A DNA stretch of 38,311 nucleotides, taken from positions 1 through 38,311 of IMG/VR virus record IMGVR_UViG_2534681700_000007. The stretch is one strand, 5' to 3'. Positions 1,532 to 23,187 of the stretch are shown here, piece by piece; position 1 is the first letter of the stretch, and each line of letters opens with the position of its first letter. The notes beneath the pieces were generated by a model. The model saw only the letters and a program-made list of their open reading frames with translations. It was not told the DNA's origin and did no database searches. The position numbers and the translations under genes are program-made. The stretch is from a virus. Its lineage: Duplodnaviria > Heunggongvirae > Uroviricota > Caudoviricetes.

Positions 1532-1741
1532 TTAATTTGAATACAATGCAATTCTCGAGGACTGAAGTTTCTCGCAATTAAAATTTATCAGTTTTACTTT
1601 CTGCTCTCTGGAAACGCCTGCTTCTTTTTTACCTGAGAGCATTTTTTCGCATTCTGATTTCGTTAGTTTAGATTTTGAATATCTTGTCCAGTTAGTAGGA
1701 GTGCCACCTTCCTTTTCAATAGTGGCGGTAATTTTATACAT
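1532..1741 (-). CDS. ydaC: Small Rac protein YdaC-like, 69 aa from MYKITATIEKEGG
   Basis: ORF 1532..1813; the internal start gives a 69-aa product and an 8-nt overlap with ralR; position between xis and ralR. Confidence 0.55.
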   Translation of the reverse strand: MYKITATIEKEGGTPTNWTRYSKSKLTKSECEKMLSGKKEAGVSREQKVKLINFNCEKLQSSRIALYSN

Positions 1742-2794: not shown

Positions 2795-5387
2795 TTGCAT
2801 ATTCCTTAGCCCAGCGGGGCAGTGATAATGTCTTAATAGCTGGCCATTCATCGGTATTCAGGCAGTCAGACAGGGTTCGCAGATTGCGGTGATATTCCTG
2901 TTGACCTGCCAGTTTTGCTTCTTCGCCCATCATGAAAATTTCAACCGGATAACGTCCGCATTCAATAGTTGTGCTGGCAACCAGAAAAACGAAAGTTGGC
3001 TGCACTCCAAACTGTGCTTCATAACCGTCACTGTAGAATGCATCCTGAACGTGATAGCGGTAGTCGTAATAAGCGGTTTTGAATCGTTGAATATCCGCCG
3101 TAGTTTTCACGTCCATGATCCAGTGAAATTCAGGGATAATTTTGTCCGGACGGCACCGACACAAAATTCCTGTTTCAGGATCTTCCCAGTAAATTGATGA
3201 TTCAGCGTGTCCGGCGCTTTCAACAAGCCATTGCCCCAGCGGCAAAGCCATAACGCTTTGATACATGAGTTCAATTTTCCGGCCTTCTTCCGCAGTGATA
3301 ACCGTTTTTCCTGTGCTTGCGCATTCCATCAGAAACGCTTTCTCTTCTTCTTTTCCGGCGTTTGTACGGCGGTTAAATTCAGGTGCTACGATAAAGCGGT
3401 TACTGAATTCTTCCGGTTCAAGTACCCGGCAGTGGAAAGCAGTTCCTAAATCGAGCGTTTTTGTCTTTGTGGTGTCCACGGGGGCATTTTTACGCCACAA
3501 ATATAGTGCCGGAGTATCAGCAATGTCATCGAGCTGAGACTTACTGATACCGGGACCCGCGTGGTAATTCTCATTCGAAATTCCGTAATAAATACCTGGC
3601 TCTATGTCTTCTACGATTACGGGATCTGCGACTTCGCCAGTTTCATCACTGCAATCGCGATGCGGATCGCTGCCAGCATTCTCATTGTGCGGATGTTCAG
3701 CGCCTTCCATTTCCTCCGGATCATTTTCCTTAGCTTCAACCTGACTCTCTTCATCGAATGTTTCCTGGTATGTTGCGTCGCCCATCACCGCACCACAGTC
3801 AGGGCAGTTATCCCCGCCAGTCTGGCCGCAGGCATTGCAGGCTATTTCCGGTTCCTGTTGCACTACTGGCTCAGGTTGATTCATATCCGGGCTGGTTTTT
3901 TCCGTTTCTGGCTGGTTCTGGTACACACAATCGCGAGTCTGGATCCCCTTTACCCATTTCGGATCGTTCGGGTCGCTAATTCCGTCAACAAATTCATCAC
4001 GTGATGCAGCAAGCAATTTATCGGCATCGACAGGATTTTTTGATGGAATGTTTTTCCGGGCTTTATGGAGTTCTGCCCGCAGTTCCTGATATTTCGCATC
4101 AACAGAATTTACCTGTGACTGAGCATCCAGCGGCTGCGTGTCCTGATGATGTTCAGTTGCGTCCGGTTCCATTGTTTCAGCCTCTCCCTGTTCAACTGCC
4201 GTTGTTCCAGATGGTTGCGGTTTTTCTTCATCATCCTGTTTTCCTTCTTCTGTTACTCGCTGCGGCATCGGGGCAGAGGAGCGACCGCAGGCAATATCCA
4301 CGATTTCCGGATCAGGGTTGGCATGATCGGTTTCAGTCAGTACTTTGTTCAGATATTCAGTGACGTGCGCGGGGATGACCTCGATCCCAATTGGTGCTTC
4401 TTTTACGGACGCAACCACGATGGCGCGGGAATAATCCAGCCCGCCAGGCATGGTGATGAATTTGTCGCGGAAAACAGAAAAGGGCGGTTTATTTTCAGCG
4501 ATAATTTCCTCAATGCGTTTAGCGTGTGCCGGATGAAGGTTATAGATGTCCAGATCCATTGAACGGGCCAGTACGCCAGTGGCTACGTCGCGCGCCAGTG
4601 ACGTCAGATCGTGTACGAAACCTTCGCCGCGATCGGTGAGGTTTCCGCCGCCAGCATTAGCACCGGAAGCCGTGCGAGTGATGTGTGAAACACGATTACC
4701 CTTCATCCACTCTTTTGTCAGCAGTCCTCGATCGGTGTAGTCAGCGTTCAGGTATGCTTCGAAAAAAGCAGTTATCAGTCCCAGGTTTGAATTACCAGGA
4801 TTAGGGAAAACTTTGTCAGTGTCACGAACCAGTTTGTGGAGTTCGCGAATTTCCAGCGGGTCGAGCAGGCTGGTTTTGTGGGAAACAGCCAGGGCAGTAA
4901 CAGCCGGTAGTTCTTCAGCCCGAGCAATGTGTAATGCCTGGAGTCCGTCGCGTGAAACGTGCGTTACCGGTTTTTCGCTGCCGTGTTGAGCAAGCCAACG
5001 AATGGGCAGTTCCTGGCCAGAAATTGGGAGTAGCATATTCTCCTCAATCTCAGTCATGTCTTCGCCGTTGACGTTGGTATTGCCTTGATAGTGAGCGTTG
5101 TCTGGTGCTGCTCCCGGTTTTAGTTCCCATGTCATGGAGTCTTTGCTGAGTTGATAGCGTTCACTCCAGGTAAAATCGATCTCACCTTCAGCGGGCAGGT
5201 CATTAACGACAGGAAAATTCGTGGCAACAGCTTTAAAATAGCTGCTCAGTTTTTTACCTGACTTAACGATCAGGTAGTCCAGAGTGGCACAGGTCGATTC
5301 AAAATCGTTGCTTGCCCACAGGACGACGTCAGGTTCACCGGATGATTTTTTCGCTTTCCGTAACAGGAAGAGTGGTTTTGTGCTCAT
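2787..5387 (-). CDS. recE: Exodeoxyribonuclease VIII RecE, 866 aa
   Basis: 866-aa ORF immediately upstream of, and overlapping, recT; length and the C-terminal nuclease region match RecE of Rac. Confidence 0.9.
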
Positions 5388-5488
5388 TGTTTTTTAACCT
5401 CAACTCAGATTAAAATTCGTTTTGTTCAGTGAATGATCTTGCCGGATACACACTGTTCATAGCCTGCGCCATACGCAGGCTATTTCTT

Positions 5489-5764
5489 TCAGATTTCACC
5501 TTTTAATTTCATTGCAATTAGAGTTGCCAGAAATTCGGCTTTTTTTTCTGCGGGCAGATTCTTTCCGATATGCACCAGGCACATTTTTTTGACACCTTCA
5601 TCAAGTGTTTTTACGTTGCCTGATGGACCATCGATATCAACCACAGTGAATGGGGTTTCTTTATTTTCTGTTTTAATTACGTAGCCAATGCGCTTTCCTT
5701 CCAGATTCACCTCGTGAACAATGTCATCGGTAGTTACAACAGTGGCTTCATAATTGGTAATCAT
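5489..5764 (-). CDS. racC: RacC, 91 aa from MITNYEATVVTTDDIV
   Basis: ORF 5489..5812 trimmed to the internal Met; recognised as RacC. Confidence 0.75.
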   Translation of the reverse strand: MITNYEATVVTTDDIVHEVNLEGKRIGYVIKTENKETPFTVVDIDGPSGNVKTLDEGVKKMCLVHIGKNLPAEKKAEFLATLIAMKLKGEI

Positions 5765-5838
5765 GTTTTTCTCCTTAATTAAGGTTGAGCGAATACCTGC
5801 CATTTCTGGCATAAATTCAGTTTCGAATAGTCAATTAA

Positions 5839-6009
5839 TTAAAGTTCATGTGCCATCTGGTCTTTTTCGGCACAAGCTTCACTGCAATATTTTCTCGGTT
5901 CGTCTTTTGATAAAATCCCGTGCATGAAGTGAAGCATTCTTTCAATAGCTTTGCTTTCTTCAACGTCTTTTTTGCAAAGGTGGTAAGCACATTTTATTTT
6001 CTTAGTCAT
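5839..6009 (-). CDS. ydaE: Small Cys-rich protein YdaE-like, 56 aa ([56 protein letters not shown])
   Basis: Not in the ORF track (under 60 aa); translated by hand from the minus strand. Its start codon overlaps the kilR stop; four Cys in CxxxxC...CxxxC spacing. Confidence 0.55.
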   Translation of the reverse strand: MTKKIKCAYHLCKKDVEESKAIERMLHFMHGILSKDEPRKYCSEACAEKDQMAHEL

Positions 6010-6230
6010 CACCATGACTCCGCCTTTACAGGTAAACCATCACGACCGAGGAAGACTTTAATCATGCGGTCAGTAATGCATGTTTTTGTGGTCAGGTTAC
6101 GAATATATAGTTTTCGCTTTTTAATATTGTTTGCCGAGGCAATATATGTCCGGCCTTCATGAAGAACATAATCGCCAGGAGTCACACACTGACGTGGTAT
6201 TTCATCAGTTCCGAAGTGATGTGCAATCAT
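6009..6230 (-). CDS. kilR: Cell-division inhibitor KilR, 73 aa from [16 protein letters not shown]
   Basis: ORF 6009..6242 trimmed to the internal Met; recognised as KilR. Confidence 0.8.
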
Positions 6231-6671
6231 AATTATCTCCATTTTTACAAATGAACTTTGTTGATGCGGTGCCTGGTGCCTCCAGGTGACTGCAACCAGT
6301 TAACAATTACAGTCGGCTTTCCCACCCAAACCAATAAGGACTAACATGACTTTTAACTGTGCCACGTGCGCTTAGCCGCATTCACCGCATCACAAAATTC
6401 ACTTTAAAAAGGGCGGACATCAGCCGAACTTCAAGAAAAAAACTGATGCCGCCAGGACTACACACAGCAATGTCGTTATTTACAACCGGAGGCGCACTCC
6501 CACCATTTAAATTTAACAGACAAGACCGACTCTTTATGGATATCGGAAATGCGCCTTCGTGTTGTGCCCGGTTTTATTTCACCACCTCCGGGCTTCGGTG
6601 GTCTCGGCTATACCCCTACAGCGAGAGCTTGTGTTAACATTTCAATACCCTTACAGTTGAGAGTTATTGAT

Positions 6672-7160
6672 ATGTTGGATGTATTTACTCCATTGTTGAA
6701 ACTTTTTGCTAACGAGCCACTCGAAAGACTTATGTATACGATTATCATTTTTGGTCTCACTCTCTGGCTGATACCGAAAGAGTTTACTGTCGCATTCAAC
6801 GCTTATACTGAAATACCTTGGCTCTTTCAGATTATCGTTTTTGCCTTTTCTTTCGTGGTCGCCATTTCCTTCTCAAGATTGCGAGCACATATTCAAAAGC
6901 ATTATTCATTACTACCAGAGCAACGAGTATTGCTTCGTTTATCTGAGAAAGAAATCGCTGTATTTAAAGATTTCCTTAAAACAGGAAATCTTATTATCAC
7001 TTCTCCTTGCCGTAACCCGGTTATGAAAAAATTAGAACGGAAGGGCATCATTCAACATCAGAGTGATAGCGCAAACTGTTCTTATTATCTCGTCACCGAA
7101 AAATACTCCCATTTTATGAAGTTATTCTGGAACAGCAGGAGTAGACGTTTTAATCGTTAG
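6672..7160 (+). CDS. sieB: Superinfection exclusion protein SieB, 162 aa from MLDVFTPLLKLFANEP
   Basis: ORF 6549..7160 trimmed to the ATG at 6672; two predicted transmembrane helices near the N-terminus; recognised as SieB. Confidence 0.8.
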   Translation: MLDVFTPLLKLFANEPLERLMYTIIIFGLTLWLIPKEFTVAFNAYTEIPWLFQIIVFAFSFVVAISFSRLRAHIQKHYSLLPEQRVLLRLSEKEIAVFKDFLKTGNLIITSPCRNPVMKKLERKGIIQHQSDSANCSYYLVTEKYSHFMKLFWNSRSRRFNR

Positions 7161-12163: not shown

Positions 12164-12439
12164 GTGGCTTCTGTTTCTATCAGCTGTCCCTCCTGTTCAG
12201 CTACTGACGGGGTGGTGCGTAACGGCAAAAGCACTGCCGGACATCAGCGCTATCTCTGCTCTCACTGCCGTAAAACATGGCAACTGCAGTTCACTTACAC
12301 CGCTTCTCAACCCGGTACGCACCAGAAAATCATTGATATGGCCATGAATGGCGTTGGATGCCGGGCAACCGCCCGCATTATGGGCGTTGGCCTCAACACG
12401 ATTTTCCGCCATTTAAAAAACTCAGGCCGCAGTCGGTAA
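12164..12439 (+). CDS. insA: IS1 InsA, 91 aa
   Basis: Translation [43 protein letters not shown]... recognised as InsA; the A6C frameshift motif (AAAAAAC at 12415..12421) lies near its 3' end. Confidence 0.9.
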
Positions 12440-12861
12440 CCTCGCGCATACAGCCGGGCAGTGACGTCATCGTCTGCGCGGAAATGGACGAACAGTGGGG
12501 ATACGTCGGGGCTAAATCGCGCCAGCGCTGGCTGTTTTACGCGTATGACAGGCTCCGGAAGACGGTTGTTGCGCACGTATTCGGTGAACGCACTATGGCG
12601 ACGCTGGGGCGTCTTATGAGCCTGCTGTCACCCTTTGACGTGGTGATATGGATGACGGATGGCTGGCCGCTGTATGAATCCCGCCTGAAGGGAAAGCTGC
12701 ACGTAATCAGCAAGCGATATACGCAGCGAATTGAGCGGCATAACCTGAATCTGAGGCAGCACCTGGCACGGCTGGGACGGAAGTCGCTGTCGTTCTCAAA
12801 ATCGGTGGAGCTGCATGACAAAGTCATCGGGCATTATCTGAACATAAAACACTATCAATAA
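12358..12861 (+). CDS. insB: IS1 InsB frame, 167 aa (made as InsAB' by -1 frameshifting)
   Basis: Translation [51 protein letters not shown]... recognised as InsB. Confidence 0.85.
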
Positions 12862-12876
12862 GTTGGAGTCATTACC

Positions 12877-12884
12877 TGATTTTG
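12877..12884. repeat. IS1 target-site duplication, right copy (TGATTTTG)
   Basis: See left copy at 12101..12108. Confidence 0.8.
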
Positions 12885-15006
12885 TCATAATTAAACGAGA
12901 TGAGGCATTAGACGAGGAAATATATATTGGTGTTATTTGTAAAGTTGGAAAGATAATTCAGTCAAATAGTGAGGTTGAACGACAAATAGAAGAGTGTCAA
13001 TTATATCCACGCTTTATTTCTTCTGGCTCTAAGAACATACATTTGAATGAAATTTGGGTTATTACTAATTCATCGATCTCAAATAATGCTCAAGAAAAAA
13101 TTTACTTGAAATTCAAATCTACAAATATAAAATTTATAGAGGGTGAAAAAATATGTTCTTTAATCAGTAAATATTACCCAGAGTTTTGGGATTTCGAATC
13201 CATTAATTATGAACAATACTTAACAGATACATTGCAAACCATAAGTGATACACCTGAAAGCTCTTTTTTTGGTAGTGTTGGCATAAATAACCTTATTGAT
13301 AGATATGTAAGCAAGGAAGATCATAAAAAACGCAGACACAGGCCGTTAAAACTGTATAGTGTTGTGAGAGCCGAGAGATTTATTTTTTTAGAGGGAACCG
13401 TTGGCTCTGGGAAAAGTACTTTGCTGAAACAGTTAATTAGAAAAATAAAAGAAGAATATTCTTACGAAAAAGACTACATCCTTCCAGTATTTTGTCAATA
13501 CAAGGATGTTCTAGAAAAAAAACTTAATGTTGAAAATATAATACAAAGTGTGTTAAGTAAGTACAAAATACAACATGATGGGAATATTTTATTAATTGTT
13601 GATTCGGTGGATGAAGTAAAGGAATCACTTGAGGAAAGGCAAAACAATTTCAGGGACATTGTAGAGAAAGTATCCAGGAATGATAAAATTCGATTACTAG
13701 TTGCTTCAAGAATTATGGATTCTCTTCAGGACTATGAAGTTATCGATCAGATGTTTGCAAGATACTCGATAATACCACTTAGCACAGGTCAAATAATCGA
13801 CTTTGTAGATAAAATCTGCAATGACATTAAAATAACAAATAAACTTAAAAATGGTATAGAAAAAACACCACTATTTAAGTTCATTCCCAGGACTCCAGTG
13901 AGCGCTATTCTTCTGGCAAGAATACTCTCTGATGAGATTAAAGAATTACCATCTACAATGACAGAACTATACTCAAAATACAGTGAGATAGTATTGGGAC
14001 GATGGGATACATCTAAGGGATTATTATCGCAAACAGAATATGATGTAATAAGTAATATATTAGTAGAAATTGCGATATTTATGATGGATAACTCTCTAAA
14101 CTGCATATCAATTTCAGAAGTGCAGGACATGTTTTTAAATTATTTGGCCAAAAGAAACTTGAATGTTGATGAGGACAAACTTTTCAAAAGACTAATTTAT
14201 CGCAGTGAAGTAACAACAGTTAATGTTAGAAGTAATACGTTCTCATTTCTACACAGATCATTCATGGAGTATTTTTACGCTGAAGGACTTAGGAAGCGTG
14301 GCCTAATAGACATAAATGATAATATTTATGATATTTATTGGGCAAATAGTTATTTCTTCTATTTTGGTTTGTTAAGAGACAATGAATATCTTATTGATAA
14401 AATTAATGAACTTAAACCTAGTAACGATAAAACAAGATTTTTAAGGTTATTTTATAACGGTTCTTTTTATTTGGCTTCATATCTAACTCCGTATAAAAAA
14501 ATAACGAGGGGAGTCCTTTTATCATATATAGATGCAGGTAAATTATATGTTGATATTCTCAAGGGAAATACCGACATCCCGCTGAAGGAGTTTTCACCAG
14601 TAGCTCTTCTTTGTATTTTCACAAAGTGTTTAAGTAACAATTACGCATATGATTTTTTCAAATCTGCCTTGGAAGACTTGTCAGTTCAAATTGAACAATA
14701 TGAGGAAATTGGTGAACATATTGATTATGCACGTTTCTTCATAGCATCAACACTGAATGAGCTCGGGGATAAATCCGCATTTGATAGCTTAGTGGAAAAA
14801 AATAAATTAGGTGTTTTGATTAATTTAGGGATAACTCACGTTACAGACGACTCAGGGCTACTTAGCACTACGGTTGATAAGTACCTGAAAAAATTCAATA
14901 AAAAAGTACGAAGTAACCATGATATGTCTAATTATATATCTAAGTTATATGAGGAATCTACAGGTTCCTTACGTACAAACCTGCAAATTCAATAATAAAT
15001 AGATTG

Positions 15007-15453: not shown

Positions 15454-15606
15454 TTTCATATTGGCGAAGTAAAGGGGGTTAAATAGTATGGCTGCGGGGG
15501 CTTGAGGCTATCTGCCTTGGGCATGAAAACCAAAGGCAGATAGAAAAAGTCCCAGTTGATATTACGCATCCGGCAAGAGGCTTAACATTAATCTGGGGCC
15601 CAATCT

Positions 15607-15819
15607 ATGCCTTACAAACGTAGGTTAGTCTCTTACGTGCTGAAAGGCAAGAAGAAGCGGGCTATGAAGCAGCAAAAGGCGATGTTAATCACCCTGATCG
15701 TCATCTGTTTAACCGTTATAGTGACGGTACTGGTAACGAGGAAAGACCTCTGCGAGGTACGAATCCGAACCGACCAGACGGAGGTCGCTGTCTTCACAGC
15801 TTACGAACTTGGGGAGTAA
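15607..15819 (+). CDS. mok: Mok (modulation of killing) reading frame, 70 aa, same frame as hok and N-terminally extended
   Basis: The 70-aa ORF contains the ...KRAMKQQKAM... junction typical of chromosomal mok/hok pairs. Confidence 0.65.
   Translation: MPYKRRLVSYVLKGKKKRAMKQQKAMLITLIVICLTVIVTVLVTRKDLCEVRIRTDQTEVAVFTAYELGE
15664..15819 (+). CDS. hok: Hok/Gef-family type I toxin, 51 aa (MKQQKAMLITLIVICLTVIVTVLVTRKDLCEVRIRTDQTEVAVFTAYELGE)
   Basis: Recognised Hok-family sequence, closest in my recollection to HokD/RelF and HokC/Gef; one transmembrane helix followed by the conserved RKDLCEV...EVAVF motif. Confidence 0.85.
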   Translation: MKQQKAMLITLIVICLTVIVTVLVTRKDLCEVRIRTDQTEVAVFTAYELGE

Positions 15820-15842: not shown

Positions 15843-17178
15843 ATAAGCGCTAACTTAAGGGTTGAACCATCTGAAGAATGCGACGCCTCGGTGCCTCGTT
15901 AAGACGATGCCTCGCGTTCTTCAATTGCGTTTTGTAGGCTGTCAGGGATACTGTCCCACGAATGGCCACCTGTAAGCTCCAGATGACCATTTTTGTTATT
16001 CTCCACAACGAGTTAGTTCTTCTTTTCGGATCCGGCACTTCTGGGGGGGAAATCCAGCGATGGCTGGATTATGTCGTCAATTAAAAATGCGGCGAGTAGA
16101 TTAGCAAATATCCACGCTTTCGCGAGTTCAGGTTCCTTTGCACGCAAAGCATCCAGGTGCAGCAAACTTTTGAGCCGCTTAAAAGCCAGTTCAATTTGCC
16201 ATCGCAGACGGTAACAATCAGCCACTTGCTCTGCTGAATATTCATCTTCCGGTAATGATGTTAGCAATAGCACATGGCCCGCTGCTTCCAGCGTTTCCGC
16301 CTGAACTACTCGTCCTTTTCGACGATTCTCGCTGAGCAGTCGGGTTTTACTGATTAATGCTTTTTCGGGAGGAAGTGATACGGCAATGAGACGTGCCGGA
16401 AAGGGAGCTCCGGCTTTTTTATTACCTGAATTGCCTATCATTACAGTGGTTTCACCGTTCTTACCGCAATCCAGCCCGCGCAGAAAACCCATCATGTCAA
16501 AGCGCATTCCTTCTGCAGTTAACCAGCGCAATCCTCGCCAGTGAACCCGGACGATATAATCAGCTTCTCCAAAAGCAAGTGAGCGGATACATTCGGGACG
16601 CGAACCGAATCCCCGGTCTGCAATGCGTATCTCGTCTGCCGTTTGCGCAAATCGGTCCAGCCGTTCAGCGTCTCTGCTGTCGGTTAGCTCAAAATCAGTG
16701 AACTGACAGGTATGAGGATCATATCCCATATGTAGTCGCCATTCAGCGCTGCCGCCCCGGGCGCACTGATTGCTGTTCCATCGACAAGACGCAATCTCTT
16801 TCCGCTTGTACAACCCGTAACTGCGGCGCGTACAGCAAGTGTTTGTGCGGCAAGTATGCCAAACCAGTCGGCGGCATTCCGCAGCCGCTTCAGGAGAGCC
16901 ACGTCAGATAATGTTGCAACGTCATGGAGCTGAGCCCATGCAGTGACTTCACGTAATGACATCCCCCCGGGGCCGTAAGCCAGCCCCAGACGTAGCAGAG
17001 TTGCAGCATCACGAATTTCGCGGCGGCGGGTTAGAGCCCCGGCATTACGTGCCGAAGTATCCAGTTCTTCGGGCTTACCAATATGGGCCAGAATTGCTGA
17101 CCAGTTATCGTGAGAGTAATTCATCGGCACGTTAAATCATATCAGGCGTAATACCACAACCCTTAAGTTAGCGCTTAT
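15843..17178 (-). mobile_element. IS186 (IS4 family), about 1336 bp
   Basis: Terminal inverted repeats CATAAGCGCTAACTTAAGGGTTG (15843...) and CAACCCTTAAGTTAGCGCTTATG (...17178); internal transposase; 12-bp direct repeat flanks. Confidence 0.85.
16013..17124 (-). pseudogene. insL: IS186 transposase (InsL-like) split by a frameshift into two overlapping ORFs (16684..17130 and 16013..16813)
   Basis: The two minus-strand ORFs together span 1112 nt from the MNYSHDNWSAILAHIGK start; one extra nucleotide would give a single 370-aa ORF. Frames switch in the GCGCCCGGGGCGGC run (about 16755..16770). C-terminal ORF carries DRGF and YRLRWQIELAFKRLK (DDE/YREK) motifs. Confidence 0.7.
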
Positions 17179-18230: not shown

Positions 18231-18520
18231 TGGTGAATTTACGTAAAGCGGCTAAAGGCCAGATGTGCCAGATCAGAATCCCTGGCTACTGCAATCACAA
18301 TCCCGAAACCTCTGTGCTGGCGCATTACAGGCTGGCGGGGACGTGCGGAACAGCGACAAAACCACACGATATGCAGGCGGCGATAGCCTGTAGCTCATGC
18401 CACGATCTAATCGACGGGCGGGTAAAAACCAGCGATTACACCAAAGAAGAATTGCGCCTGATGCATGCTGAAGGGGTTTTTCGCACACAAGAAATCTGGA
18501 GAAAGAAAGGTCATTTATGA
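18230..18520 (+). CDS. DUF1364/YbcO-like Cys-rich protein (putative nuclease), 96 aa
   Basis: Translation MVNLRKAAKGQMCQIRIPGYCNHNPETSVLAHYR...CSSCHDLIDGR resembles YbcO-family prophage proteins; start overlaps the upstream stop (ATGA-type junction). Confidence 0.6.
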   Translation: MVNLRKAAKGQMCQIRIPGYCNHNPETSVLAHYRLAGTCGTATKPHDMQAAIACSSCHDLIDGRVKTSDYTKEELRLMHAEGVFRTQEIWRKKGHL

Positions 18521-19059
18521 TTTACCCAACGAATACAGGAAAAAGCGGAGAACACCTTCGCCTCACCACGCTGGAAAGTGTCTGGATTCAGGGAAAACTA
18601 CGTATGTGGGGGCGCTGGTCGTATATTGGCGGTGGCAGGTCAGGGAATATGTTCAATCAGTTGTTGGCATCCAAAAAACTGACGAAAACAGCCATTAATG
18701 AAGCCCTGCGCAGAATGAAAAAAGCGGGAATAGAGAAAGCTGAGCTGGAAGCGTTTTTGCGAGAGATGATCAACGGCAAGCAAAAGAGCTGGCTGGCGCA
18801 TTGTACTGATGCAGAGGCGTTATGTATTGATCGAGTCATAAGTGAGGTGCTGGCAGAGCATCCAGGATTGATTTGCATTCTCCGGCAACGCTATGAAGGG
18901 CGGGGGATGACTAAGCGCAAAATGGCTGAATTGCTAAATGATGCACACCCAGAGTGGTGTTTTAGCACATGCGAAAAACGGATTGCTAATTGGTTAGCTG
19001 TTGCTGAGTATGCCCTATATATTCCCATGCGTGAATCATTTGCTGAGAAAATGGCTTGA
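18517..19059 (+). CDS. Candidate late-gene antiterminator (Q-like), 180 aa
   Basis: Last gene before a short leader with an intrinsic terminator and the lysis cassette; family assignment is by position and general resemblance only. Confidence 0.5.
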   Translation: MIYPTNTGKSGEHLRLTTLESVWIQGKLRMWGRWSYIGGGRSGNMFNQLLASKKLTKTAINEALRRMKKAGIEKAELEAFLREMINGKQKSWLAHCTDAEALCIDRVISEVLAEHPGLICILRQRYEGRGMTKRKMAELLNDAHPEWCFSTCEKRIANWLAVAEYALYIPMRESFAEKMA

Positions 19060-19512: not shown

Positions 19513-20044
19513 GGGCTGGTTTATTGTATGCCAAATGATTATTAAAAAGGTTGTGTTAATAACAAAATCCGAAATAATATGCCTGCATATTTTTATCTTG
19601 CTTATATTCTGCATATTGTGCATAGCAGGCTCATCCCTGCAATCAAAACTGTATGATGAGTATTTTTTGTTTTCCTTTTTTCCAGTCATCTGATGATGAC
19701 CTGCTTCTTTTTAATCCGGATCGACATCAGTTTTTTAAGATAATTCCTGCGAGTTATATGCATAAATACCACAAACTCCGCATTTTATGTGGTTGGGAGT
19801 TGCCGGGCGCGCAGTGAGTTTGCTAAGAAAACTCCTGCATGGTGAATCCCCCTGTGCGGTGGGGTGATACCATTAACCTTTTCTGTCGCCGACAGGTATC
19901 ACGAACATTTTGTTCACCGGGAGGCACCCGGCACCATGCACTTCAATAGATTCTCTCCACATTATGGATATTCTTTCAGAATATCCCACGCAGACTTTGT
20001 GTAAATGTTAACAAATGTGCGTTTTATTTGATCTGATTCGCTGT

Positions 20045-20074
20045 TTGAGCGTCCAAAACAACGGTATATATAAT
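20045..20074 (+). promoter_or_regulatory. Candidate sigma70 promoter of the lipoprotein moron (-35 TTGAGC 20045..20050; -10 TATAAT 20069..20074)
   Basis: Read from the sequence, ~30 nt upstream of the ATG at 20104, which has a GAGGA Shine-Dalgarno. Confidence 0.35.
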
Positions 20075-20103
20075 CCTTTACTATATGACATATGTGAGGA
20101 AAA

Positions 20104-20532
20104 ATGGGTTTTCGTAGCGCATCAATTCTTACGTTGATTATTAGTGGGATTATTATCGGGTGCACTGATGCTGTATCGACAAATTATCATGACCGTACAT
20201 CATATTACTCCGATAAAGCAATAGAGACACAGTATGTGAGTTCATCTGAACGTACTTCTGATGTTAGTGAGAATATCCGTCTGTATGCCCATCAAATCAA
20301 GAGCGCCATCGAAAAACAGTTCGGGGATGCGAGTAAGTATTCAGGAAAAGAGTGTACACTGAGAATGCATATGGCCCCGAATGGCCTTCTACTGGAGGTT
20401 AAAAGAGAAAGTGGAGACCTCGATTTATGTCGTGAAGCGATGAATGCGATAAAGAATGCTGATATACCTGCCCCCCCTTCGCCGGAAGTATATAAAGTAT
20501 TTCAAAATGGGGTGCTGGATTTTAAACCCTGA
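20104..20532 (+). CDS. Lipoprotein with C-terminal TolA domain III-like domain, 142 aa
   Basis: Signal peptide with lipobox IIG-C; the C-terminal ~85 aa (HQIKSAIEKQFGDASKYSGKECTLRMHMAPNGLLLEVKRESGDLDLCREAMNAIKNADIPAPPSPEVYKVFQNGVLDFKP) align with my recollection of E. coli TolA C-terminus (...QIKSAIESKFYDASSYAGKTCTLRIKLAPDGMLLDIKPEGGDPALCQAALAAAKLAKIPKPPSQAVYEVFKNAPLDFKP). Confidence 0.7.
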   Translation: MGFRSASILTLIISGIIIGCTDAVSTNYHDRTSYYSDKAIETQYVSSSERTSDVSENIRLYAHQIKSAIEKQFGDASKYSGKECTLRMHMAPNGLLLEVKRESGDLDLCREAMNAIKNADIPAPPSPEVYKVFQNGVLDFKP

Positions 20533-20682
20533 TATTTATTGTTTTGTAATAAACGGTTTCGGCTTAGGTTTGTTCTGACACAGCTACGGCACTGAGCTAA
20601 ATTTAGCGGATAGTCAGCTCTGAGCCAGTGGCGGACGTAACAACTACTATTGCTGAGATTTTAATGGATTGAGGAGCAAGAA

Positions 20683-21078
20683 GTGGGATTAAAGAAAATC
20701 GTTATGTTGACTTTTTGGGTCGGTTTTGTTGCGGGATGCACACCTTTACACCCTTCAGATTGCCACAAAACTACTGCTACAGGTAGTTGCAGTTCAGGAC
20801 GCTGGGATGATCAGGATGAATGGGGGGCGCAAGCGCGGGGAATCAGAGCTGCAATTAATGCCAAACTTGATGAGCCGCATAACTGGAAAGGGAAAAAATG
20901 CAGGTTGCATATGGAATTCTCTCAGGATGGCACGGCGTTAAAAATATCTACCAGTAACGGTGATAAAGCCTATTGCGAAGCGATAAAGTCCGCAGCTCAT
21001 AAAGCCAAATTTCCGGCCTTCAACAATCCGGAAGTCTACAGAGATTTTCAGAAATCTGGCTTTGACATGCGAGGTTAG
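20683..21078 (+). CDS. Second, more divergent lipoprotein with TolA domain III-like C-terminus, 131 aa, GTG start
   Basis: GAGGAG Shine-Dalgarno 6 nt upstream of the GTG; lipobox VAG-C; C-terminal region (GKKCRLHMEFSQDGTALKISTSNGDKAYCEAIKSAAHKAKFPAFNNPEVYRDFQKSGFDMRG) keeps the same conserved Cys pair and xPEVYxxFQ motif as the upstream paralog. Confidence 0.65.
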   Translation: MGLKKIVMLTFWVGFVAGCTPLHPSDCHKTTATGSCSSGRWDDQDEWGAQARGIRAAINAKLDEPHNWKGKKCRLHMEFSQDGTALKISTSNGDKAYCEAIKSAAHKAKFPAFNNPEVYRDFQKSGFDMRG

Positions 21079-21203
21079 CTCTTCAATTACTATATCTCAT
21101 TCATAGCAAACTGACAGATTTGATGATGTTCTATATACGAAACCTGTGATGTCAAGTCTGAGCTAATACAAATAAACATAATATCAGAGAAATACATTTT
21201 ATT

Positions 21204-21227
21204 AGCTCGCTACGGCGAGCTTTTTAT
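21204..21227 (+). terminator. Intrinsic terminator (AGCTCGC-TACG-GCGAGCT then TTTTTAT) closing the lipoprotein moron
   Basis: Read from the sequence, ~125 nt after the second lipoprotein stop and upstream of the holin gene. Confidence 0.5.
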
Positions 21228-21329
21228 ATTGCATCGTCTCCAGCATATATATCAATTAAGGCTCTGATTGATGTGTCTGAAAGCCTACACATAATAACTA
21301 TGCCATCCGTTCCGTGCGGAGGTGAGGCT

Positions 21330-21545
21330 ATGAAATCCATGGACAAAATTTCAACAGGCATTGCCTACGGCACCTCCGCAGGCAGTGCTGGCTACTGGTT
21401 TTTACAGTTGCTCGATAGAGTAACTCCGTCACAGTGGGCTGCAATCGGTGTGCTGGGTAGTCTGGTATTTGGCCTGCTGACGTACCTGACAAACCTTTAT
21501 TTCAAGATTAAAGAAGATAAGCGCAAGGCTGCGAGAGGTGAATAA
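21330..21545 (+). CDS. S: Phage-21-type pinholin (S21), 71 aa from [14 protein letters not shown] (dual-start MKSM.../MDKI...)
   Basis: Recognised S21 sequence; GGAGGTGA Shine-Dalgarno; its stop overlaps the endolysin start (TAATG). Confidence 0.85.
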
Positions 21546-22531: not shown

Positions 22532-22825
22532 TTATTGTGAGCAATACACACGCGCTTCCAGCGGAGTATAAATGCCTAAAGTAATAAAACCGAGCAATCC
22601 ATTTACGAATGTTTGCTGGGTTTCTGTTTTAACAACATTTTCTGCGCCGCCACAAATTTTGGCTGCATCAACAGTTTTCTCCTGTCCAATTCCCGAAACG
22701 AAGAAGTGATGGGTGATGGTTTCCTTTGGTGTTACTGCTGTCGGTTTGTTTCCAACAGTAAACGTCTGTTGAGCACATCCTGTAATAAGCATTGCCAGAG
22801 CGGCAGAAAACAACATTTTTTTCAT
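22532..22825 (-). CDS. bor: Bor lipoprotein (serum resistance), 97 aa from MKKMLFSAALAMLITGC
   Basis: Recognised lambda Bor sequence; lipobox ITG-C; antisense to the late operon as in lambda. Confidence 0.9.
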   Translation of the reverse strand: MKKMLFSAALAMLITGCAQQTFTVGNKPTAVTPKETITHHFFVSGIGQEKTVDAAKICGGAENVVKTETQQTFVNGLLGFITLGIYTPLEARVYCSQ

Positions 22826-23187
22826 CTTATTATCCTGCATTGTTAAAAACGGCGGAATCCTATGTGACAACAATTAAACGATAGTTAAATGGATTGATGA
22901 AAATTAAAACTATATAGGTGTACGCTCAGACTATTGGAGGAAGTTGGGGACACTCAGAATCCTGTGGAATGAAATAAACCGCTCTTTCTGTCTATTACCC
23001 TTTTAGCTGCGCTGTATCGTCGCCGTATTCCCGCATGAACCATGACCGTAGCCCGACGGGGAATTCCTTCTGCGTGAGTGTGCGGGAATAATCAAAAACG
23101 ATGCACACCGGGTTTTACTGTGCTGACAGACGCAGGGTTACCCTCATAGTTGCTTTTCCGGTGCGATGGTGGAAGAAACCGGGATGT

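Follow-up and report, generated by a model that had tools for sequence, protein, structure and literature searches.

A putative lipoprotein gene pair between the Q-like antiterminator and holin genes

The DNA analysed here, the IMG/VR virus record IMGVR_UViG_2534681700_000007 at its full length of 38,311 nt (hereafter the window), represents an almost complete Rac-like lambdoid prophage of Escherichia coli that carries genes for an integrase, RecE, SieB, replication, a P21-type holin, a lysozyme, Rz/Rz1 and Bor together with head and tail genes. Between its DUF1133 Q-like antiterminator gene (18517..19059) and its holin gene, and thus not in a tolQRA-tolB-pal operon, lies a compact cassette of two plus-strand genes, which we call A (20104..20532, 142 aa) and B (20683..21078, 131 aa). 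An earlier note, made from the sequence without database searches, had described this cassette as an AT-rich, self-contained moron encoding two paralogous lipoproteins whose C-termini resemble domain III of TolA. Both open reading frames are present exactly where that note placed them, and the unit is indeed AT-rich, with a G+C content of 41.6% as compared with 49.3% for the window.

The cassette was also said to have its own promoter and terminator. A consensus scan found a sigma-70-type promoter-like site on the plus strand (TTGAGC-18 nt-TATAAT, 20045..20074) with matches at 10 of 12 positions. As this AT-rich stretch has many sites of the kind (11 found against 6.6 ± 2.0 expected), this one is weak evidence when taken alone; it is unchanged in copies of the cassette whose upstream flank has diverged. 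The terminator hairpin is strong. Scanning and folding identified an intrinsic terminator at 21204..21227 on the plus strand, made of a 7-bp GC-rich hairpin followed by UUUUUAUAUU, and the hairpin (21204..21221) plus its U-run has a folding energy of −13 kcal/mol and a z-score of −3.81, with none of 200 shuffled sequences being equally stable. The plus-strand spacer that separates the two genes (20533..20682) contains a weak promoter-like site (20575..20603, 9 of 12 consensus matches). Since it shows no terminator-like structure (fold z-score −0.83), A and B are probably co-transcribed.

As the earlier note had proposed, both products look like lipoproteins. Each starts with a signal peptide composed of a basic n-region, a hydrophobic core and a lipobox of the form [LVI][ASTVI][GAS]C: the N-terminus of A, MGFRSASILTLIISGIIIG-C20, ends in the lipobox IIG-C20 (Cys20 codon at 20161), and that of B, (GTG)MGLKKIVMLTFWVGFVAG-C19, in VAG-C19 (Cys19 codon at 20737). 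Shine-Dalgarno sequences precede both starts (GAGG for A, GAGGAG 7 nt before the GTG of B). Judged by these signals, the GTG at 20683 is a better start for B than the ATG at 20704 chosen in RefSeq, because the latter has no Shine-Dalgarno sequence and drops the charged n-region. RefSeq (PGAP) also names gene A ‘tolA: cell envelope integrity protein TolA’, for example at NC_011415 1495462..1496436. This name and the internal start of B are likely annotation errors that have been propagated over hundreds of genomes. By the textbook +2 rule, lipoproteins without Asp at this position are sorted to the outer membrane; the residue following the lipobox Cys is Thr, not Asp, in both A and B, which are most likely lipidated and destined for the outer membrane.

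Beyond the lipidation site, A consists of a disordered tether (residues 21 to ~52) and a TolA domain III (residues 53–142, nt 20260..20529), and B of a conserved Cys-containing peptide (residues 20–48, nt 20740..20826) and a TolA domain III (residues 45–131, nt 20815..21075). Conservation across genera is high in this mature N-terminus of B (TPLHPSDCHKTTATGSCSSGRWDDQDEWG). Its two extra cysteines probably form a disulfide loop, and the AlphaFold model shows a low-confidence β-hairpin in this region. We considered the peptide (…GSCSSGRWDDQDEWG) as a candidate colicin TolB box, a motif published as DG(S/T)GWSSE within GASDGSGWSSENNPW (PMC2821528), and rejected it, as only the Trp matches the published motif; a phmmer search of the peptide against the PDB retrieved no colicin.

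The resemblance of both C-termini to TolA domain III was confirmed by profile search and by structure prediction. A and B match the Pfam family PF06519 with E-values of 3.6e-23 (82 bits) and 1.3e-14 (54.6 bits), respectively, at a gathering cut-off of 25. In a phmmer search against the PDB, residues 56–142 of A aligned without gaps to residues 335–421 of E. coli TolA (E 2e-27), down to the common C-terminus LDFKP, and residues 50–129 of B also aligned to TolA (E 5e-9). Over TolA 335–421, A is identical at 51 of 87 positions (59%) and B at 27 of 87 (31%). The AlphaFold models have pLDDT values of 80–95 over the domains and disordered tethers. When superposed by Foldseek, the model of A matched 2x9a_B, the chain bound to g3p of phage IF1, with a TM-score of 0.96 and a root-mean-square deviation (rmsd) of 0.6 Å, and that of B matched 3qdp with a TM-score of 0.92 and an rmsd of 1.2 Å. 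The cysteine pair C363/C388 of TolA, invariant in the family alignment, is kept in both proteins (C84 and C109 in A, C73 and C98 in B).

Only this domain is shared with TolA. In the NCBIfam models of full-length TolA, only the last ~90 positions (model positions 265–387) match A and B. Both score below the cut-off of 213 for NF007065 (A 106, B 54), and A alone exceeds that of TIGR02794 (75 versus 59.45); its RefSeq name ‘tolA’ stems from passing this cut-off on the C-terminal domain alone. Neither domain I of TolA, the membrane anchor engaging TolQR, nor domain II, a long helix, is present in A or B. Lengths of 142 and 131 aa leave no room for them, so the two proteins are uncoupled from TolQR and from the proton-motive force. 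Thus, according to profiles and models, A and B have the fold of TolA domain III without being TolA. The description of the pair as paralogous had to be given up, at least for any recent duplication: A and B are only 29% identical and have separate histories. The dN/dS ratios (0.40 for A, calculated against a diverged A-variant presented below, and 0.08–0.14 for the B domain) indicate that both genes are under purifying selection.

We then compared the surfaces by which TolA domain III is recognised. Strand β3 of TolA (A415-K420) is where g3p-N1 (the N1 domain of filamentous-phage g3p), the TolB N-terminus and colicin N all dock; a single D418P or K420P substitution abolishes all three interactions, and Y340, I344, I348, F412 and F419 also matter for binding (PMC4339652). 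A keeps Y340, I344, I348, F412, D418, F419 and K420, and its edge strand reads GVLDFKP where TolA has APLDFKP, the last five residues (LDFKP) being identical. In B the edge strand is SGFDMRG, which is proline-free, and Y340 is lost. The segments GVLDFK of A and SGFDMR of B are both predicted as strands that, free of proline, should be able to accept a partner strand. Colicin A uses a site on the opposite face of the domain, formed by LLDIKP and three cation-π lysines (PMC3365938). This site is largely kept in A (LLEVKR, with H/K/K at the lysine positions) and lost in B (ALKIST, with E/S/H, so that all three cation-π lysines are gone). The two proteins are therefore unlikely to be redundant, which suggests that they differ in specificity. 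The dissociation constants (Kd) published for TolA domain III are 1 μM for colicin N, 1.3 μM for colicin A, 12–15 μM for g3p-N1 and ~40 μM for TolB (PMC4339652, PMC3365938), and the domain is also the coreceptor of phage IF1 (PDB 2x9a).

Mobility and relatives of the cassette

Comparison with other phages by blastn and pairwise alignment delimited a near-identical mobile block (19913..~21400) that comprises the cassette, ~130 nt upstream of it and the 5′ end of the holin gene. Phage mEp460_ev081, whose Q and lysis genes differ, has a cassette 99.8% identical to this one. Pairwise alignment with mEp460 revealed only 3 differences within 20045..21400, as against 65 in 19816..20044, none of which lies downstream of 19912, so that they fall within ~100 nt, and 14 in the holin gene, all beyond 21400, where divergence is ~7%. 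The same block is common to other lambdoid prophages with different Q and lysis genes. Near-identity between diverged flanks marks it as a unit spreading by recombination between phages, and the moron label of the earlier note is strengthened accordingly.

A match to the small RNA (sRNA) family STnc100 (19807..19993, plus strand; Rfam 86.6 bits, gathering score 47) is located between the Q-like gene and the cassette and contains the left edge (19913) of the near-identical block. This match may correspond to the late-promoter leader RNA of this phage type, in which case the TolA-domain genes would head the late transcript, as stx does in Stx phages.

The cassette occurs in 774 of 5426 complete E. 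coli genomes (at least 80% coverage), and 786 of the matching E. coli records have it with at least 99% identity; only 1 of 50,697 GenBank phage records carries genes A/B. The two families differ in range. The A family comprises 46 clusters with Escherichia/Shigella sequences only; databases also contain many truncated or frameshifted copies. The B family comprises 370 clusters across Enterobacteriaceae. On ~600 plasmids, B is present as a unit extending from the Shine-Dalgarno sequence to the stop codon (20648..21080) with 87% nucleotide identity. Its relative on pO157 is placed after psiB-psiA-hok and before toxB, and those on IncI/IncK conjugative plasmids adjoin the nikB relaxase gene. IncI pili are the structures to which phage IF1 attaches. 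Members of the B family also occupy ordinary chromosomal neighbourhoods in Kluyvera, Leclercia, Enterobacter, Klebsiella, Raoultella, Pantoea, Yokenella and Citrobacter; mobile elements are thus not the only home of the family.

Single-gene versions of the cassette occupy other slots. The diverged A-variant mentioned above, in another IMG/VR prophage (L066, 1042..7873), shows 80% nucleotide identity to A from codon 19 on and has a different signal peptide. The gene order there is Q, an OmpC-like porin gene on the reverse strand, a DNA methylase gene, the A-variant, a nanS-p esterase gene, DUF826 and the holin gene. The variant thus stands alone in the stx slot of a prophage laid out like an Stx phage, near an envelope-remodelling gene.

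An exhaustive, profile-free search with the A domain retrieved 304 cluster representatives at E ≤0.001. Among the best 150 of these 304, 71 are proteins of 100–170 aa with the domain at their C-terminus. A strict lipobox is present in at least 41 of these 71 short proteins, and several others have an ordinary signal peptide. Within this set, which was chosen by similarity to A, the short exported proteins keep Y340 (0.90), D418 (0.64) and F419 (0.87), as well as the cysteines, F412-N414 and L417, at least as well as full-length TolA does.

When B was used as a tblastn query against the plasmid collection, ~690 further plasmids, mostly of Klebsiella, were found to have more distant TolA-domain genes. 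In one of them, the small Klebsiella ColRNAI plasmid NZ_CP031718 (1512..2245, minus strand), a TolA-domain lipoprotein gene (lipobox LTAC) forms an overlapping operon with a TonB_C gene downstream, whose product has a signal peptide and a TonB C-terminal domain (PF03544, 8.8e-11). In this plasmid the tolA(III)-tonB(C) pair is divergently oriented beside a bacteriocin-immunity-lysis operon, and the pair is at least 99% identical on 379 plasmids, mostly small (10–12 kb) Klebsiella plasmids of this type. CloDF13 has the same backbone, with genes K and L filling the tolA(III)-tonB(C) slot. K and L have been linked to a phage-sensitivity phenotype, and we examined them as possible TolA-like genes and rejected them: they encode unrelated proteins, and no CloDF13 open reading frame matches the TolA-domain profile. 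On a conjugative K. pneumoniae plasmid (NZ_CP050361, IncFII, MPF_I; 5217..6246), a thioredoxin-fold (DsbC/TraF-like) gene lies directly 5′ of a TolA-domain lipoprotein gene (lipobox ITAC).

A proposed decoy function and its alternatives

We give an even chance to the explanation that we favour, namely that A and B are uncoupled TolA-domain decoys which make their carrier tolerant to colicins and filamentous phages. The earlier note had already put forward a decoy or competitor, and the residues kept in A and the genomic contexts of the relatives give this idea a better footing. The cassette would produce two outer-membrane lipoproteins, each composed of a lipid anchor, a flexible tether of ~25–35 residues and a complete TolA C-terminal domain. 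Tethered in this way, the domains would be suspended close beneath the outer membrane, at the point where g3p-N1 and the translocation domains of colicins first reach the periplasm. There they could act as dead-end partners for ligands that need TolA domain III in order to be pulled in: g3p-N1 of filamentous phages, the segments by which group A colicins (N, A and K among them) bind TolA, and the TolB N-terminus once it has been exposed by TolB-binding colicins. Given the same edge strand without any transmission of force, a captured ligand would go nowhere and the carrier would be tolerant. Since these invaders bind TolA domain III with roughly micromolar affinity and TolB does so with a Kd of ~40 μM, even a modest amount of decoy could intercept them without shutting down Tol-Pal. 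Gene structure, domain identity and fold, the kept binding edge, selection, mobility and distribution come from the analysis itself, whereas lipidation, sorting to the outer membrane, expression in the lysogen, ligand binding and the tolerance phenotype are inferred.

Laboratory results already known would extend naturally to such a decoy function. In work by Levengood-Freyermuth, Click and Webster (J Bacteriol 1993), artificial export of TolA domain III reportedly rendered E. coli leaky as well as tolerant to f1 and to group A colicins. In the mirror case, g3p-N1 placed in the periplasm sequesters TolA, which results in colicin A resistance and a 4-log drop in phage uptake (PMC10424213). The genomic context is supportive as well, with B-like genes on conjugative plasmids and a TolA and TonB domain pair on bacteriocin plasmids. 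TolA and TonB are docking hubs that bacteriocins and phages hijack for import. It is conceivable, albeit somewhat doubtful, that mobile elements of Enterobacteriaceae, among them prophages, conjugative and virulence plasmids and small bacteriocin plasmids, carry a general, unrecognised class of defence in which exported, motor-less copies of the TolA and TonB docking domains serve as periplasmic decoys. Under this tentative reading, carriers would broadly tolerate bacteriocins that depend on Tol or Ton as well as pilus-specific filamentous phages, the cassette being a double decoy with two specificities.

Several observations weigh against the decoy explanation. Neither A nor B matched any of the PADLOC defence models, and the promoter of the cassette is known from its consensus match alone. 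B, with 31% identity to TolA domain III and devoid of Y340 and of the colicin A lysines, looks like a poor mimic, and a decoy that bound the TolB N-terminus could itself damage Tol-Pal and make cells bile-sensitive. With the cassette placed in the late operon beside the lysis genes, and with its right boundary of recombination within the holin gene, late expression for the benefit of the phage itself is possible. B-family genes also occur in ordinary chromosomal neighbourhoods, which fit an endogenous as well as a defensive role. Finally, the decoy model has no explanation for the conserved Cys-loop peptide at the N-terminus of B.

The last two points lead to an alternative that we consider unlikely: an endogenous envelope role, especially of the B family, whose members would have a cellular partner of their own and might, for instance, regulate the TolB-Pal cycle or serve it as an alternative acceptor. 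Copies on prophages and plasmids would in that case be captured accessory genes whose effect is on envelope physiology and not on invaders. In addition to the conserved peptide, the 370 clusters across many Enterobacteriaceae, the strong purifying selection on B (ω ~0.1) and its far divergence from TolA (the 31% identity already cited) agree with such a role, as does the placement of B among LysR, AraC, GNAT and btuE-type genes, not phage genes, in 16 species genomes of other genera. Nevertheless, B has moved as a tight unit onto plasmids and phages, no conserved partner gene lies beside it across genera and E. coli K-12 is generally known to do without it. Moreover, the A family is restricted to Escherichia/Shigella, and every copy of A whose context was examined lies in a prophage.

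The position of the cassette raises a further alternative, deliberate interference with Tol-Pal, which we regard as quite unlikely. Abundant tethered domains would titrate the TolB N-terminus and loosen the outer membrane, and when driven by a late promoter or from a bacteriocin plasmid this would favour vesiculation, leakage or the escape of phage or bacteriocin. The location between the Q-like gene and the holin gene, directly 3′ of the STnc100 match, is the stx slot of Stx phages, and the mobile block reaches into the holin gene. The TolB-binding strand is kept, tol mutants hypervesiculate, the TolA mutants D418P and K420P, which do not bind TolB, are leaky (PMC4339652), and the Klebsiella copy adjoins a bacteriocin-immunity-lysis operon. 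However, the prophage already possesses Rz and Rz1 for outer-membrane disruption, and a promoter-like site of its own together with a strong terminator is typical of morons expressed in the lysogen. Other copies on plasmids and chromosomes have no lysis context, an envelope-loosening role is not apparent for the exported TonB_C partner of the Klebsiella operon, and TolB has only a weak affinity for TolA domain III (~40 μM).

That A and B are non-functional debris, captured tolA fragments still open by chance, is highly improbable: RefSeq does label A simply ‘tolA’ and truncated or frameshifted copies abound, but both genes have gained complete lipoprotein signal peptides and Shine-Dalgarno sequences, their dN/dS ratios are well below 1, the cassette is nearly invariant in the 786 E. 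coli records and dozens of diverged clusters share the same architecture.

Known systems and neighbouring elements

Compared with TolA domain III of the E. coli Tol-Pal system (PDB 1TOL, 2X9A, 3QDP/3QDR, 1S62), A and B have the same fold, disulfide cysteines and C-terminal edge strand. They differ in being exported with a lipoprotein signal peptide, whereas TolA is anchored in the inner membrane, and in being encoded in a prophage cassette, with neither domain I nor domain II and hence no link to TolQR, whereas TolA belongs to the tol-pal operon. The laboratory constructs that place TolA domain III or g3p-N1 in the periplasm are alike in supplying a soluble, uncoupled copy of one partner that competes with the native TolA-ligand interaction, as we propose for A and B. 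The latter are, by contrast, natural and lipid-anchored, have their own promoter-like site, are 59% and 31% identical to the host TolA and are spread on mobile elements.

Among natural systems, the decoy reading brings to mind Cor (phi80/N15), Llp (T5) and TraT (F), which, like A and B as predicted, are small outer-membrane lipoproteins of mobile elements, with entry blocking as the expected role, and are encoded by typical moron or accessory genes. Unlike A and B, these proteins are not copies of a host protein, and they plug an outer-membrane receptor (FhuA, OmpA). PHROGs and PADLOC gave no sequence or family relationship between them and A/B, for which the target would be the docking module of the invader in the periplasm. 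We propose the cassette as a variant of the entry-exclusion lipoproteins of mobile elements, aimed at the docking module of the invader instead of a host receptor. A further parallel is the Klebsiella tolA(III)-tonB(C) operon of NZ_CP031718, which likewise encodes a lipoprotein (LTAC) with TolA domain III only on a mobile element. This protein is ~27% identical to B, is paired with an exported TonB C-terminal domain and is encoded next to the bacteriocin-immunity-lysis operon.

The earlier note had made the cassette its leading candidate for an undescribed system, which is partly upheld. In the full-text literature, with subscription journals outside the scope of the search, we found no study of exported or mobile-element TolA-domain proteins; the mentions of TolA in papers on O157 concern chromosomal tolA. 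Among the viral structures of BFVD, no TolA-domain fold was found at E ≤0.001. Yet the genes themselves are not new to databases, since RefSeq names them TolA or ‘TolA C-terminal domain-containing protein’ and PHROGs includes them in phrog_5772 (‘unknown function’). If the decoy reading is true, it would represent a new principle of entry exclusion, in which a periplasmic docking domain of the host is copied and displayed uncoupled from its motor. It would bear on the colicin and filamentous-phage sensitivity of natural E. coli, considering the share of genomes with the cassette (774 of 5426) and the presence of B relatives on pO157 and IncI/IncK plasmids. Klebsiella bacteriocin plasmids and their ecology would be concerned too, as would therapeutics based on bacteriocins or phages that depend on Tol or Ton import. 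The systematic misannotation as ‘tolA’ would be corrected.

The rest of the window contains other mobile and accessory elements. No tRNA genes were found in it. Two antitoxin RNAs were detected by Rfam, namely RalA, the antitoxin sRNA of the Rac RalR/RalA system (1557..1735, plus strand, 225 bits), and sok, the antitoxin RNA of hok/sok (15496..15669, plus strand, 92 bits). An IS1 transposase open reading frame abuts one for a 710-aa NACHT/STAND NTPase (12358..14995, plus strand; PF05729 plus PF22728). The latter has a TTG start directly after IS1 and probably represents an antiphage NACHT gene that this insertion sequence (IS) has truncated or disrupted. A second IS (DDE_Tnp_1) is located at 16013..17130 on the minus strand. 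Besides the TolA-domain cassette, the prophage encodes the superinfection exclusion protein SieB (6549..7160, plus strand) and the Bor lipoprotein (22532..22873, minus strand), and is thus loaded with several host-modifying accessory genes.

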